From Nitrospirota bacterium (GTDB taxonomy: Bacteria > Nitrospirota > Thermodesulfovibrionia > Thermodesulfovibrionales > UBA6898): a stretch of 24,000 bases of DNA. The position numbers were made by a program, and so were the translations under genes. The stretch is from assembly GCA_016235245.1 (NCBI GenBank), contig JACRLO010000025.1, forward strand, positions 12,935-36,934. Direction: 5' to 3'. Position 1 is the stretch's first letter. Each line of letters opens with the position of its first letter. Below are positions 5,795 through 9,847 of the stretch, in pieces. The notes beneath the pieces are model-generated. The model saw nothing but the letters and a program-made list of their open reading frames with translations. It searched no databases and was not told the DNA's origin.

Positions 5795-6091
5795 TCAGCA
5801 GCAATTGCCTGTTTTGTTCTCGCCGCTGCAGTCACATGAAGGCTCTCCTCCGCTTATTATGCTGTTGATGACAGCAGCAGCGCAGCCAACGCCCTTGTTA
5901 ACGGTCAGCGCACCGAAGGCACAATTGCCAACGCAGGCCCCGCATTCCATACACCGGTCCTTGTCCAGGATAACAGCCTTTTTGTTTTCGATGGCAAAGA
6001 CTCCATGCGGGCATACCTCGACGCAACTGCCGCAGCCAATACAGTGTTCCGGGAAAATTTCGAGGCTCACAGTATTTGAGAGATATTTCAT
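5795..6091 (-). CDS. hgcB: HgcB, 2x[4Fe-4S] ferredoxin of the mercury methylation pair
   Basis: Two CxxCxxCxxxCP-type clusters (CIGCGSCVEVCP and CMECGACVGNC). These include the HgcB-diagnostic C(M/I)ECGA motif, a conserved later Cys (GVGC) and a C-terminal CC (GNCC-stop). The gene lies immediately after hgcA. I place the start at the ATG at 6091: it forms an ATGA overlap with the hgcA stop and has GGAGGG 4 nt upstream. The ORF track's longer start at 6103 has its SD abutting the ATG. Confidence 0.87.
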   Translation of the reverse strand: MKYLSNTVSLEIFPEHCIGCGSCVEVCPHGVFAIENKKAVILDKDRCMECGACVGNCAFGALTVNKGVGCAAAVINSIISGGEPSCDCSGENKTGNCC

Positions 6092-7182
6092 AAGACCCTC
6101 CATTCTCCAAGCTTATAGATAAGCAGGAGAATTAGTGAGACCGCCACACCCGAAATATACAGGGGAATGCCGATCTTCAATTCCTTTTTAACGCCTGACA
6201 TTCCGGTAAACGTACTTGCTCCGGTAAACTGAAGAGCGATATAGGAACTCGCCAAAGGGAAAAACAGATACGCAGCAATGAGGAGGACCTTACTTAAATG
6301 TCCGAGCATTGAAATATACGTTGTGGACAAAAAGACTGCGAGTATTCCTGTTATCCAGCCCTTTACCGCAAATGATCTGAAAGGAATAAACGGAAGAAGA
6401 ACAGGAGTTACCAGCGCACCGGCAATTACGGATATGAGGCCAAGCAGGAGAAATGGCAAACCAGCAGAAATGGCATCCATGAAAAGAATGCCTCCTGGCT
6501 GAAGACCGAATATCGTGAGTATTATCAGGGCATACCATGGATAGTATTTTTTCATGGCAGGATTGATTTCCATTGGTGTAAGGATCAGTCTGTCGACGAG
6601 CGGGAACTTCACAGTCCTCATGTCCCTTGTCGCCTGATATCCCGCGGCGATATAAGCGCCGATATCTTCAGCACGCACTGGTCCGTAGCAGACCTTGAAC
6701 CCTGTGGCTTTTGTTGTCTTGTGGGCGCTGATCCCCGGAGCCCCGAGTTGGGGGACGATTATCCTCCTGTGATCGACCACCCTGTCCAGTCTTGTAACGG
6801 AGATTATTCTCACCAATTCATCAGTTCCAAACGTCCCTTTGCCGGCTGCGCACCATACATTTATGCCTTTTGTGTCCAGGACCAGGATCCAGACATTCAG
6901 CCCTTTCAATGCCTTCCTGAAGGCATCAAAGCTGAGTTTATAATTGGCGCTTACCAGAACGTCCGAGTTCTTATCCGGCACGCCGACAGCGTACAGTCCG
7001 GGATTAACGATATAGTTATTCCTGAATGCGCTGATCCTGCACTTCAGATGTTCCCAATAATCAACCCTGGTAAGGTCAGGCGATACGCTGTAAATAGCAC
7101 CTATTTCAGTCGTGATGGTCCCGGTTACCCATGCAGGGCGGTTCTTTTCGATATTCATCTTTATAAACTTCAGATCTGCCAT
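6088..7182 (-). CDS. hgcA: HgcA, corrinoid protein of the mercury methylation pair
   Basis: 364 aa. The N-terminal CFeSP-like corrinoid domain carries the diagnostic cap-helix motif GINVWCAAGKGTFGT. The Cys is residue 111, codon 6850-6852, verified as tgc on the minus strand. Flanking HgcA-typical blocks: PGLYAVG, VLVSANYKLSFDAFRKAL, WILVLDTKG, IVPQLGAPGISAH, GFKVCYGPVRAEDI. The C-terminal half has about 5 transmembrane helices, as in HgcA. Confidence 0.93.
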   Translation of the reverse strand: MADLKFIKMNIEKNRPAWVTGTITTEIGAIYSVSPDLTRVDYWEHLKCRISAFRNNYIVNPGLYAVGVPDKNSDVLVSANYKLSFDAFRKALKGLNVWILVLDTKGINVWCAAGKGTFGTDELVRIISVTRLDRVVDHRRIIVPQLGAPGISAHKTTKATGFKVCYGPVRAEDIGAYIAAGYQATRDMRTVKFPLVDRLILTPMEINPAMKKYYPWYALIILTIFGLQPGGILFMDAISAGLPFLLLGLISVIAGALVTPVLLPFIPFRSFAVKGWITGILAVFLSTTYISMLGHLSKVLLIAAYLFFPLASSYIALQFTGASTFTGMSGVKKELKIGIPLYISGVAVSLILLLIYKLGEWRVL

Positions 7183-8258
7183 TACAGGTCAAGACCTTTT
7201 ACACTGCAATATCCAATGGTGAAATATTTCTTTTGAAAATAGATCGCGACATTCACCAGCCCGATCAGAACCGGCACTTCGACCAGAGGACCAATTACCG
7301 CTGCAAATGCCGCACCAGAGTTAATTCCGAAGACGGCAACAGCAACCGCTATTGCAAGTTCAAAGTTATTACTCGCTGCAGTAAACGAGAGTGTAGCGGT
7401 CTTTGGGTAATCTGCCCCGATCTTTTTCCCAAGATAGAAAGAGACTAGGAACATCACCACAAAATAGATAAGGAGGGGAATTGCAATGCGTACGACATCC
7501 AGCGGCAGTCTGACAATATAGTTACCCTTGAGAGAGAACATCACGAGAATGGTGAAAAGCAGAAAGATGAGCGTAATAGGGCTTATTCTGGGTATAAAGA
7601 CCTTTTCATACCACTGCCGGCTCTTTACGTTAAGCAGAACGAAACGGGTAAGCATACCTGCCAGAAAGGGGATGCCAAGATAAATAAATACGCTCTCTGC
7701 AATCTGGACCATGGTTATATTTACGATCACGCCCTTCAGCCCAAGCCACGACGGCAGCACAGTGATGAAGATGTAGGCATAAACCGAGAAAAAGAGCACC
7801 TGGAAGATTGAGTTAAAGGCAACGAGTCCTGCTGCATACTCGGTATCCCCGCAGGCAAGGTCGTTCCATACGATAACCATCGCAATGCACCGGGCAAGGC
7901 CTATCATGATCAGGCCGACCATATATTCCGGGTACCCGGAGAGAAAAGCGATCGCCAGCAGAAACATCAGAACCGGACCTATAACCCAATTTTGGATCAG
8001 CGACAGCAGAAGGATCTTCTTATTTCTGAAGACTTCCCCCAGCTCCTCGTATTTAACTTTTGCCAATGGCGGATACATCATGAGAATGAGACCTATGGCA
8101 ATCGGTATATTCGTGGTGCCGACCTGAAACTGGTTGATGAACCCCTCAGTCCCTGGAATGAAATATCCAAGGCCGACACCAAGGGCCATTGCGCTAAATA
8201 TCCATAACGTAAGAAAGCGGTCAAGGAAAGAAAGTCTTTTGCCTGTTTTTTCCGTCAT
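7182..8258 (-). CDS. acr3: arsenite efflux transporter, ACR3 family
   Basis: ACR3 blocks: [92 protein letters not shown] (with the conserved Cys), [20 protein letters not shown]. The start is probably the ATG at 8258, which has GGGGA 6 nt upstream and sits 2 nt after the arsR stop. Alternatively it is the ATG at 8264, which forms an ATGA overlap with the arsR TGA. The ORF-track start at 8306 lies inside arsR and is unlikely. Confidence 0.92.
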
Positions 8259-8260
8259 CG

Positions 8261-8638
8261 TCATTCCCCACAGCATCTTTTTTTGTTTTGCATAGGAGCA
8301 ATGCACCCTTTCCCCGGCTTGCCGTCAATAAAATCATTAAGCCTGGCTTTGTCTCCGGACAACATCTCCTTTTCGATCTTCTCGGTGACCGAGAGTATGA
8401 GCATCCTCCTGAACATATCTTCCGGTTCGATTCTGTAATGGGTCCATTTCCCCTGTTTCCTGTCCTTTATCAGGCCTGCCTCTTTCATTACGTTCAGATG
8501 AAAGGAGACCTTCGGCTGGCTCATATCCAGGGCAGCGACAAGATCGCAGACGCAGAGTTCACCGGCTTCCAGAAGCTTGATGATCCTGAGCCTTGTCCCC
8601 TCGGAGAGGGCCTTGAATACCATGAGCAGATCTTCCAT
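8261..8638 (-). CDS. arsR: ArsR/SmtB-family metalloregulatory repressor
   Basis: 125 aa. Winged [62 protein letters not shown]. The ELCVCDL element is the classical As(III)-binding motif of R773-type ArsR. An additional C-terminal Cys cluster is present ([15 protein letters not shown]). Confidence 0.88.
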
Positions 8639-8644
8639 GGATTT

Positions 8645-8884
8645 CTAAGCCTCAGCCTTTATGAGGTCTTTCACTTTTTCAAGGCTCGGCAGCGGCTTAC
8701 CTGAATGTTTGAGTTTGCCGTTTATCACAAGCCCTGGAGTAGACATCGTATATTTCATGATCTCCTGAATATCGGAAATCTTTTCAATTCTTGCCTCAAT
8801 ACCGAGTTCTTTCACGGCTGCTAGTGTAAGCTGTTCCATTGTGTGGCAGTTTGCACATCCCGGACCTAATACCTTGATTTCCAT
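8645..8884 (-). CDS. small thioredoxin-fold protein (redox-active disulfide protein 2 type)
   Basis: 79 aa. MEIKVLGPGCANCHTMEQL has a CxxC at the N terminus of helix 1, then TPGLVINGK. This matches the roughly 80-aa thioredoxin-like family that usually accompanies COG0701-type permeases in arsR-linked operons. AGGAGGT lies 8 nt upstream. Confidence 0.75.
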   Translation of the reverse strand: MEIKVLGPGCANCHTMEQLTLAAVKELGIEARIEKISDIQEIMKYTMSTPGLVINGKLKHSGKPLPSLEKVKDLIKAEA

Positions 8885-8896
8885 ATGTTCAACCTC

Positions 8897-9847
8897 CTAT
8901 AAAATCGCATTAAACAAATAGCCGACTGCAATAATAGTAACAGTCATAATTCCGACAAATACTGCAAGCAGCGGGACTTTTAATACTTTTTTCAAAATGA
9001 TCACCTCCGGCAGCGAAAGTGCAGTCACTGCCATCATGAACGCCAGGACCGTTCCCGTACTCAGTCCCTTCTCCATAAGGGCATAAACTATCGGTATCAC
9101 ACCGGCAGCATTCGAATAGAGAGGGACCCCAAGCGCTACCGCAATCGGCACAGCAAAGGGGTTTTGCGGCCCTGCGTACTTCAGCAGAAAGTCTTGGGGA
9201 ACATACCCATGAATAACCCCGCCGATTCCAATAGCCACGAAAATATAGAGCCAGACCCTTTTCAGGATATCGACTGTGTTTTCTTTTGCATACTGCAGAC
9301 GATCCCTGAAGACCTGTTTTGCAATCTCCTGCCCCTCCCCGAGCCTGATCTTATAAACATATTCCTCGACCCACTTCTCGAGCTTTAATCTACCGATAAT
9401 AAAACCGGCTATGACGGCAACCAACAGGCCGGTACCCAGATATATCGCAGCTATCTTCCATCCGAAGAGTCCCCAAAGGAGGACGACAGCCACTTCGTTT
9501 ATCATGGGGGAGGATATGAGAAAGGAAAAGGTTACGCCAAGGGGCACACCGGCCTCCACAAAGCCGATAAAGAGAGGAACAGCAGAACAGGAGCAAAAAG
9601 GAGTAACAATGCCCAGCAGTGCGGCAAGTATGTTTCCTATAAACTCTCTTTTATGGGAGAGTATTTTCTTTGTCCGCTCAGGGGGGAAATATGAGCGGAT
9701 GACCGACACCGCAAAAATAATGACCGAAAGCAGCAGAAATATCTTTATCGTGTCGTAAACAAAGAATTCTACTGCAGCGGCCAGCCTTGAACCTGAAGCA
9801 AGGGCAAACCACTGATATGTGACAAGAGAAGCGAATTCATGAAGCAT
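8897..9847 (-). CDS. COG0701/ArsP-like membrane permease
   Basis: 316 aa, about 8-10 hydrophobic segments. The TPFCSCSAVPLFIGF motif is typical of the 'predicted permease' family (DUF318/ArsP_1) that includes the organoarsenical efflux permease ArsP. It is paired with the small thioredoxin-like gene, as is common for this family. Confidence 0.8.
   Translation of the reverse strand: MLHEFASLVTYQWFALASGSRLAAAVEFFVYDTIKIFLLLSVIIFAVSVIRSYFPPERTKKILSHKREFIGNILAALLGIVTPFCSCSAVPLFIGFVEAGVPLGVTFSFLISSPMINEVAVVLLWGLFGWKIAAIYLGTGLLVAVIAGFIIGRLKLEKWVEEYVYKIRLGEGQEIAKQVFRDRLQYAKENTVDILKRVWLYIFVAIGIGGVIHGYVPQDFLLKYAGPQNPFAVPIAVALGVPLYSNAAGVIPIVYALMEKGLSTGTVLAFMMAVTALSLPEVIILKKVLKVPLLAVFVGIMTVTIIAVGYLFNAIL

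Follow-up and report, generated by a model that had tools for sequence, protein, structure and literature searches.

An arsenic resistance-type operon that probably carries hgcA and hgcB as distal genes in an uncultured Nitrospirota lineage

Organisation of the ars-hgcAB block

We analysed a 24,000-nt stretch of DNA from a Nitrospirota bacterium (GenBank assembly GCA_016235245.1, contig JACRLO010000025.1, positions 12,935 to 36,934; hereafter the window) in which the mercury methylation genes hgcA and hgcB adjoin genes of arsenic resistance (ars) type. Six intact open reading frames (ORFs) follow one another in tandem on the minus strand from 9847 to 5795, and their coordinates were confirmed in the window sequence. 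An earlier reading made from the sequence alone (the sequence-only reading) had proposed the order ArsP-like permease, thioredoxin-like protein, ArsR, Acr3, HgcA and HgcB, and each ORF indeed matched its family. Curated NCBIfam cut-offs were passed by five of the six genes, and the permease passed the Pfam PF03773 cut-off instead. The genes are listed below in the direction of transcription, with bit scores followed by the cut-off.

9847-8897, minus strand: ArsP-family permease (PF03773, COG0701), 316 aa; PF03773 ArsP_1, 275.7 bits vs 32.3
8884-8645, minus strand: small thioredoxin-like protein of ArsE/MTH895 type, 79 aa; TIGR00412, 86.9 bits vs 62
8638-8261, minus strand: ArsR/SmtB metalloregulator, 125 aa; NF033788, 100.3 bits vs 55
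8264-7182, minus strand: Acr3 arsenite efflux permease, 360 aa; TIGR00832 equivalog, 461 bits vs 282.8
7182-6088, minus strand: HgcA corrinoid protein, 364 aa; NF040863 equivalog, 394.4 bits vs 275
6091-5795, minus strand: HgcB ferredoxin, 98 aa; NF040864 equivalog, 117.2 bits vs 99

Two start codons were reassigned. Acr3 most likely starts at the ATG at 8264 (or 8258) and not at the GTG at 8306 of the ORF list, because the TIGR00832 model (residue 25 of the GTG-8306 ORF) and the 359-aa relatives begin there. For HgcB the ATG at 6091 is most likely the start, rather than 6103, since it is preceded by GGAGG at a distance of 5 nt and forms an ATGA overlap with the hgcA stop codon. The spacing read from the DNA agreed with the earlier description: 12 nt separate the permease gene from the thioredoxin gene and 6 nt separate the latter from arsR, after which the genes overlap, by ATGA at arsR/acr3, by TAATG at acr3/hgcA and by ATGA at hgcA/hgcB.

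Motifs of ArsR, Acr3, HgcA and HgcB

In ArsR, helix alpha-3 bears an ELCVCDL site, and C-terminal cysteines are present at Cys112 and Cys121-Cys122. The third cysteine of ELCVCDLC is replaced by valine in this protein, with the C-terminal cysteines present instead. Among the loci surveyed below, the same CVC site occurred in the ArsRs of L002, L003, L010, L076 and L107, and an ELC(V/A)C site was found in most ArsRs adjoining hgcA. Acr3 was 84-91% identical to the Acr3 proteins of L002, L004, L095 and L107 and contains the motifs RCIAMV and NNFELAIAV; the cysteine of the former and the glutamate of the latter (in NFELAI) are the conserved residues of the Acr3 translocation pathway.

The NF040863 match covers residues 31-356 of the 364 residues of HgcA, and hgcB lies directly downstream of hgcA, as expected for membership of the HgcA family. 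The cap-helix motif GINVWCAAGKG, with Cys111, was invariant in an alignment of 12 relatives; it fits the pattern N(V/I)WCA(A/G)GK, which we take, as established knowledge (Parks 2013), to be the HgcA cap-helix motif bearing the cobalt-ligating cysteine. The closest relatives of this HgcA were 82% identical and came from metagenome-assembled genomes (MAGs) labelled Nitrospirae, Nitrospiraceae and Thermodesulfovibrionales. The hgcA of the window was also present in the data set SRR12113394. HgcB has two CX2CX2CX3C motifs, CIGCGSCVEVCP and CMECGACVGNCA, an internal cysteine in GVGCAAA and a C-terminal CC (...GNCC). By analogy with characterised members, the HgcAB of the window is predicted to methylate Hg(II). 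S-adenosylmethionine (SAM) is the methyl donor of HgcAB (PMC11588087), and other roles suggested for the pair in the literature are those of an antimicrobial system and a halomethane dehalogenase.

The N-terminus of HgcA (7093-7182, minus strand) lacks an insert of about 30 aa bearing CCG and C-x-x-C motifs. Most close relatives (393-394 aa) have this N-terminal CC insert, and the short form is common to the window, L002 and P0119. The Haft 2022 preprint describes an N-terminal CC/CU (selenocysteine) motif for most HgcA proteins and connects the insert with this site; the motif does not define the family. We considered a selenocysteine-extended HgcA, read through an in-frame TGA three codons upstream of the ATG, and rejected it: the extension contains no CU/CC motif and enters acr3, and relatives begin at the same MAELKFIK. 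Both HgcA and HgcB of the window have cysteine, not selenocysteine, at the positions reported as selenocysteine in other lineages.

Transcription unit and putative operator

Upstream of the permease gene, a short spacer separates the block from napD, the last gene of a nap operon.

9848-9914, minus strand: napD-permease intergenic spacer, 67 nt; proposed promoter and ArsR operator, with TTGACA and the motif TATCAACTTATGTTTATATG

The 20-nt motif TATCAACTTATGTTTATATG lies at 9871-9852. It occurs once in the window, where no chance matches are expected, and a search of the whole window found no second copy before hgcA or elsewhere. The motif and TTGACA are kept upstream of arsP in L002, L003 and L004, and thus in four loci with the window, despite differing flanks and upstream neighbours. 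A short inverted repeat in the spacer, ACATAA/TTATGT, is overlapped by the motif. We regard the spacer as a putative promoter combined with an ArsR operator. The conserved upstream motif and the codon overlaps, taken together, make a single operon from arsP to hgcB the most economical and likely reading. A scan of the window gave no intergenic terminator-like site, including after hgcB; all terminator-like matches fell inside coding sequence. Rfam (gathering threshold) and ARAGORN gave no hit in the window to a riboswitch, a tRNA or any other RNA. The nap-ars junction is common to the window and L002, and transcription of nap could therefore conceivably continue into the ars-hgc operon.

Linkage of ars genes to hgcAB in other loci

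To place the block in context, 80 species-representative hgcA loci (44-69% identity) were searched with the window proteins and with the ArsC, ArsD and ArsA of one of the loci, L004. A same-strand ars-type gene was present within 5 kb of hgcA in 31 of these 80 loci; counted by gene, ArsR was found in 21, ArsC of the low-molecular-weight phosphatase (LMWP) type in 9, Acr3 in 6, ArsE in 5 and ArsP in 3. Up to 2 kb from hgcAB, ars-type genes had a density of 12.9 per 100 kb, compared with 1.2 per 100 kb at a distance of 6-8 kb, and every ars-type gene within 2 kb (37/37) was on the same strand as hgcAB. This roughly tenfold fall with distance, together with the strand bias, argues that the clustering of ars genes with hgcAB is not due to chance. 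In a further set of 80 metagenome loci, those flanked on each side by 2.5 kb or more were counted; 12 of these 21 contained ars genes.

Gene order varied widely. The closest layout was that of L002, a MAG contig (GCA_016217675.1) with nap-arsP-arsE-arsR-acr3-trx-small-hgcA-hgcB-dsbD-ECF-CMD; L003 and L004 share this type of layout and add arsC and arsDA, the order in L004 being arsP-arsE-(arsR)-arsC-acr3-arsD-arsA-trx-small-hgcAB-dsbD. Other arrangements were arsP-arsE-arsR-trx-dsbD-hgcAB (L101), hgcAB-arsP-arsE-arsR-trx-dsbD-CDF (L010), arsR-arsC-acr3-hgcAB (L095) and arsR-phosphoesterase-acr3-hgcAB (L105, L107 and L108). As in the window, acr3 is directly joined to hgcA in L095, L107, L108 and L120. 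In L119 (1521-3639) an ArsM homologue of 277 aa, which shares 53% identity with the annotated ArsM of Sulfuricella, is encoded directly upstream of a CC-motif HgcA, so that ArsM and HgcAB can co-occur in one cluster and are not mutually exclusive substitutes.

These comparisons bear on an argument from absence. The sequence-only reading had noted the absence of arsM, arsC and mer genes from the window, and family scans and tblastn bore this out: tblastn gave no match in the window to ArsM (Sulfuricella query, E <= 1e-3) or to ArsC of the glutaredoxin or LMWP type, and none of the families of merR, merA, merB, merT or merP was represented among the window ORFs. All window ORFs of at least 90 aa were assigned to other families except one of 127 aa (1410-1793), which had no Pfam match. 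From this absence it had been argued that HgcAB supplies the methylating activity of the operon. That step is not supported, since relatives with the same synteny carry LMWP-type arsC and arsD/arsA and one contig has arsM upstream of hgcA; the lack of these genes in the window is therefore one variant among many and not a design.

In the close relatives hgcAB is bracketed by additional genes: a secreted thioredoxin and a protein of 53-57 aa with a CxC...CxC pattern are encoded upstream, and a DsbD/CcdA-type membrane protein downstream (L002 7305-7864 and 9390-10079; L003 6315-6864 and 8480-9169; L004 6325-6873 and 8480-9169). The small protein weakly matched CopZ_Nterm_CC / BFD-like 2Fe-2S families, and the set as a whole resembles a DsbD system for reductant transfer in split form. 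Assignment of these genes as ArsF/ArsG was rejected, as the NCBIfam scan returned a secreted thioredoxin, a CopZ_Nterm_CC-like protein and a DsbD-type protein (ArsG 46.6 bits vs 200). Several loci of other lineages (L066, L077, L165 and L171, of which L066 and L077 are Bacteroidales) also have a DsbD-like gene, some 700 nt upstream of hgcA, and a DsbD-like gene with a thioredoxin gene occurs in L057, L101 and L145. None of the three bracketing genes is left in the window. In L107 (4110-4826), and likewise in L105 and L108, the gene between arsR and acr3 encodes what was judged by eye to be a metallophosphoesterase-like protein (238 aa in L107).

The permease and thioredoxin form an autonomous module

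The permease contains the motif TPFCSCS (C85, C87), which was invariant in 12 homologues and agrees with the conserved CxC pair in a transmembrane (TM) helix expected of ArsP; a CxC cysteine pair is reportedly required in Campylobacter jejuni ArsP. Two other assignments within the broad PF03773 family were tried. The scores against SaoE (127.6 bits vs a cut-off of 325) and against the SO_0444 Cu/Zn exporter (109 bits vs 300) fall well below both equivalog cut-offs, and the permease is therefore neither. By analogy with C. jejuni ArsP, it is most plausibly a putative organoarsenical exporter. The thioredoxin-like protein has a CxxC site, C10-A-N-C13 (in GCANC), and is also matched by PF13192; its closest solved structure is MTH895 (1ILO, E = 1e-13). 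No arsF or arsG partner genes of an ArsEFG system were found in the window.

Eight plasmid neighbourhoods of homologous permeases (49-57% identical, annotated simply as 'permease') were inspected. A small thioredoxin gene was adjacent to or clustered with the permease gene in all eight, each without hgcB, and ArsR or ars genes were adjacent to or near the module in every case (ArsR in six; Acr3, ArsC or ArsA in three). An extracytoplasmic function (ECF) sigma factor was present in three and a cation diffusion facilitator (CDF) gene in two. Like the window, the modules of Cereibacter sphaeroides, Ilyobacter polytropus, Comamonas sp. C11 and Sulfuricella denitrificans (pSCD) combine a TPFCSCS permease with a thioredoxin of about 79 aa, usually under ArsR and sometimes with Acr3/ArsC/ArsA, ECF sigma or CDF genes nearby. 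Unlike the window they have no hgcAB, and several hold rhodanese or OsmC genes instead. The permease-thioredoxin pair is thus an autonomous, usually ArsR-linked module, usually with no methyltransferase nearby.

Two earlier suggestions have to be revised in this light. A putative methyl-metalloid exporter had been taken to imply a methylase encoded in cis; ArsM accompanies only one of the eight plasmid permease clusters (Sulfuricella pSCD), and Pseudodesulfovibrio mercurii ND132 has two ArsP genes and no ArsM. Since the module usually stands without a methylase, its presence implies none in cis. The thioredoxin had been proposed to reduce either the CSC motif of the permease or the C-terminal tail of HgcB. 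Its constant pairing with the permease on hgcB-free plasmids points to the permease as its partner; the first role is favoured on this ground and the second disfavoured.

Relation to described systems

Co-localisation of hgcAB with ars genes, which the sequence-only reading had presented as part of an undescribed detoxification logic, is already in the literature (PMC7438021; bioRxiv 10.1101/2022.10.17.512643; PMC11984097), and the hypothesis of an arsenic-resistance role for HgcAB has been tested. Genes for acr3, arsC, arsM and arsR flank hgcAB in diverse MAGs (McDaniel 2020, PMC7438021 Fig. 6), and hgcA preceded by arsR, with acr3 or arsC as neighbours, has been reported (Peterson 2025, PMC11984097); in Lake Mendota hgcA expression was lower where arsR adjoins hgcA (same study). 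These clusters resemble the window in that hgcAB of uncultured anaerobes lies beside arsenite efflux and arsR genes. They list acr3, arsC, arsM and arsR, whereas the cluster in the window is headed by arsP/arsE, is overlapped at its codons and has neither arsC nor arsM.

The closest experimental parallel is P. mercurii ND132, in which an upstream, co-transcribed ArsR regulates hgcAB, arsenic and S-adenosylhomocysteine (SAH) act as inducers (Gionfriddo, bioRxiv 10.1101/2022.10.17.512643; AEM 2023), and other ars operons, including arsR-arsP-arsE, are co-induced (bioRxiv 10.1101/2022.10.17.512643). When a role of HgcAB in arsenic resistance was tested in that strain, no mono- or dimethylarsenicals were detected and a hgcAB deletion kept As(III) resistance (bioRxiv 10.1101/2022.10.17.512643). 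The arsR2-hgcA-hgcB locus of ND132 shares with the window a same-strand ArsR upstream of hgcAB, and its hgcAB belongs to an arsenic-responsive regulon and is co-transcribed with ArsR, which we propose for the window as well. The two loci differ in that ND132 has no other ars genes at hgcAB, its arsP, arsE and acr3 lying elsewhere in the genome, whereas the window holds a full efflux operon. ArsR2 of ND132 also has an unusual four-cysteine, SAH-responsive site, in contrast to the classical ELCVCDL of the window ArsR.

By family and gene content, the window also resembles C. jejuni's ars operon, in which an ArsP-family permease and Acr3 stand under one ArsR. That operon also includes arsC and is not known to hold an arsE thioredoxin. 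Its ArsP acts on organic and its Acr3 on inorganic arsenic under ArsR regulation (Wang 2009; Shen 2014; Chen 2015; as summarised in review PMC6205960). In contrast to the window, no hgcAB is mentioned for it in the literature consulted. A cobalamin-dependent, ArsM-independent methylation of As(III) by MtaA and methylcobalamin is known from methanogens (Thomas 2011, cited in PMC6205960). It arises as a side activity of the enzymes of methanogenesis, and it differs from the system considered here in that it involves no HgcAB, no ArsR regulation and no dedicated export.

An arsP/arsE pair heading a hgcAB cluster was not described in the literature searched for hgcA together with arsP. The operon is a new arrangement (headed by arsP/arsE, codon-overlapped, without arsC or arsM) of a locus type that has already been described. 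Since both the association and the hypothesis are in the literature, the gain is incremental.

Proposed function and alternatives

We interpret the block as an ArsR-controlled resistance operon for arsenic or other thiol-reactive metalloids, with hgcA and hgcB as co-transcribed distal genes, and assign this interpretation a probability of roughly 0.6. ArsR would bind an operator overlapping the promoter upstream of arsP, as the conserved motif suggests, and would be released when As(III) or Sb(III) binds the cysteines of ELCVCDL, a step modelled on this motif and on established ArsR biology. One polycistronic mRNA would then be made, on which the overlaps seen in the DNA could couple translation of the last four genes. 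Acr3 would extrude As(III), and the permease, kept reduced or otherwise helped by its dedicated ArsE, would export another thiol-reactive species; C. jejuni ArsP suggests, as the most plausible candidate, a trivalent organoarsenical of exogenous origin, for example methylarsenite, MAs(III). HgcAB, a membrane corrinoid protein and a ferredoxin made from the same mRNA, would methylate Hg(II) when it is available. As a net result, expression of hgcAB would be set by exposure to arsenic and not to mercury.

Several observations weigh against this interpretation. ArsR narrowly misses the R773-type PRK10141 cut-off (91.2 vs 97 bits), and its CVC site is also found in CadC-like Cd/Pb sensors, so that the inducer could be another soft metal. 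PF03773 includes, besides ArsP, the Cu/Zn (SO_0444) and SaoE exporters. A generic sigma-70 promoter scan gave sites in the window that were not above shuffled expectation, and both co-transcription and As(III) responsiveness in this organism are properties that we infer. The interpretation also leaves unexplained why hgcAB was selected into ars clusters.

Among the alternatives, a lack of any functional coupling seems unlikely. Here hgcAB would be part of a variable metal-resistance island, fused to acr3 by deletion and either transcribed on its own or carried as neutral cargo. In the relatives, hgcA is preceded by two additional genes (the thioredoxin and the small CxC protein) and a gap of some 130 nt, and the direct acr3-hgcA junction of the window is therefore explained as a secondary deletion; many Nitrospirota hgcAB loci, moreover, have no ars gene within 8 kb, and hgcAB transcript level predicted the methylation rate poorly in ND132 (Gionfriddo). 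Set against this are the steep rise in ars gene density and the complete strand bias close to hgcAB, the recurrence of the association across phyla in differing gene orders, the start/stop overlaps of the window and the experimental demonstration in ND132 that ArsR controls hgcAB. An operon directed at mercury itself is, in our judgement, improbable. ArsR would in that case sense Hg(II) or another soft cation, and the permease and ArsE would export a methylmercury-thiol or Hg-thiol species and thereby couple methylation to export. Uptake of Hg(II) is reported to be tightly coupled to methylmercury export, for which no exporter is known (Schaefer 2011, as quoted by McDaniel 2020, PMC7438021), and arsP-arsE lies beside hgcAB in varied orders in three phyla (L010, L057/L144, L078, L101, L002-L004); the metal and organometal exporters within PF03773 and the CadC-type CVC site, both named above, would also suit such an operon. 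It is nevertheless hard to reconcile with an Acr3 that belongs to an arsenite-specific equivalog, with the arsenic-specific arsC, arsD and arsA added in relatives, or with the finding (Gilmour 2011, as cited in PMC10083202) that in the methylators tested, methylation gives no resistance to Hg(II). With arsP at only 3 of the 80 species-level hgcA loci, most methylators must also do without it.

The proposal of the sequence-only reading, that HgcAB serves as a corrinoid-dependent As(III)/Sb(III) methyltransferase in place of ArsM and that the ArsP-like permease exports the product, whether for detoxification or as an antibiotic weapon, we hold to be very improbable. It draws on the fact that hgcAB is the only methyltransferase system in an operon whose window has no ArsM, on the export of MAs(III) by characterised ArsP (PMC6205960), on the precedent of the methanogens (Thomas 2011, as cited in that review), on the strong and recurrent ars-hgcAB linkage, on the rarity of ArsM neighbours (one clear case in 160 hgcAB loci) and on the native function of HgcAB, which is still open in the literature. 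The ND132 result speaks against it, arsenic-induced hgcAB having yielded no detectable mono- or dimethylarsenicals there and its deletion no loss of As(III) resistance. So do the arsM gene directly upstream of hgcA in L119 and the published arsM neighbours, the usual lack of a methylase beside the permease-thioredoxin module and the retention of arsC in the relatives' clusters; for purified HgcAB no arsenic substrate has been reported, and arsenic goes unmentioned in PMC11588087. We give equally little credence to a related form in which HgcAB is a member of the arsenic regulon with a trivalent metalloid as its native substrate: ArsR senses As(III), HgcAB methylates As(III) or Sb(III) by way of its corrinoid, ArsP/ArsE export toxic MAs(III) either for detoxification or as a weapon, and mercury methylation is a side reaction. 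If true, it would explain the repeated recruitment of hgcAB into ars operons. Methylation of arsenic or antimony by HgcAB in this organism is possible, and nothing in the data favours it.

Prediction of methylmercury formation is limited by two open questions, namely why microbes carry hgcAB and how its expression is controlled. The locus is among the cleanest genomic cases of a link to arsenic: hgcAB is joined to acr3 by overlapping codons and lies behind an ArsR of the classical As(III) type and only one conserved promoter/operator-like motif. Should the ArsR-controlled operon work as we predict, methylation capacity in these groundwater and sediment Nitrospirota would be turned on by arsenite rather than by mercury, which would be relevant to sites polluted with both arsenic and mercury. 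The cassette is compact (about 4 kb) and allows direct tests of HgcAB activity on arsenic and of the transport of methylated metal(loid)s by ArsP/ArsE.

Flanking genes and host block

Three further genes follow hgcB on the same strand.

5707-4793, minus strand: CDF (CzcD/ZitB-like) cation efflux transporter; TIGR01297 258 bits, PF01545; 87 nt downstream of hgcB
4769-4158, minus strand: ECF-type sigma-70 factor; Pfam Sigma70_r2, r4_2, ECF; 23 nt downstream of the CDF gene
4101-3844, minus strand: AhpD/CMD-family CxxC protein, 85 aa; PF02627 52.9 bits; last same-strand gene before the convergent selB

The CDF transporter was 58% identical to one in the hgcAB-arsP-arsE cluster of L010. The sigma factor shared 73% identity with its positional counterpart in L002, which follows hgcB-dsbD there, and the AhpD/CMD protein shared 86% identity with the product of the gene after that counterpart. 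As the plasmid survey placed CDF genes beside two permease-thioredoxin modules and ECF sigma genes in three permease clusters, the CDF, sigma and AhpD-like genes are probably part of one metal and thiol stress block together with the ars-hgc genes. The plasmids with ECF sigma or CDF genes beside such modules (Comamonas, Citrobacter and Sulfuricella) are unrelated.

Upstream, the nap operon (napA-napG-napH-napB-napD; 9915-17086 region, minus strand) ends 67 nt before arsP. Further upstream on the same strand are a gene for an NrfA-like multihaem cytochrome c552 (567 aa) and then a block of ribosomal-protein genes, rpoA and secY. No mobile-element genes were seen in the window. L002 has the whole layout from nap to the AhpD/CMD gene, with 73-91% protein identity, and the window thus shows, in slightly reduced form, a chromosomal block that is conserved in an uncultured Nitrospirota lineage.

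A 46-aa cysteine-rich ORF (MPCSRCNRCTCCKALSELCLCNS...; 3677-3817, minus strand) lies beyond the AhpD/CMD gene, where it shares sequence with the end of selB; the ORF matched no family and may be spurious. The selA and selB genes (97-3680, plus strand) point towards the cluster, at a distance of roughly 2 kb from hgcAB.

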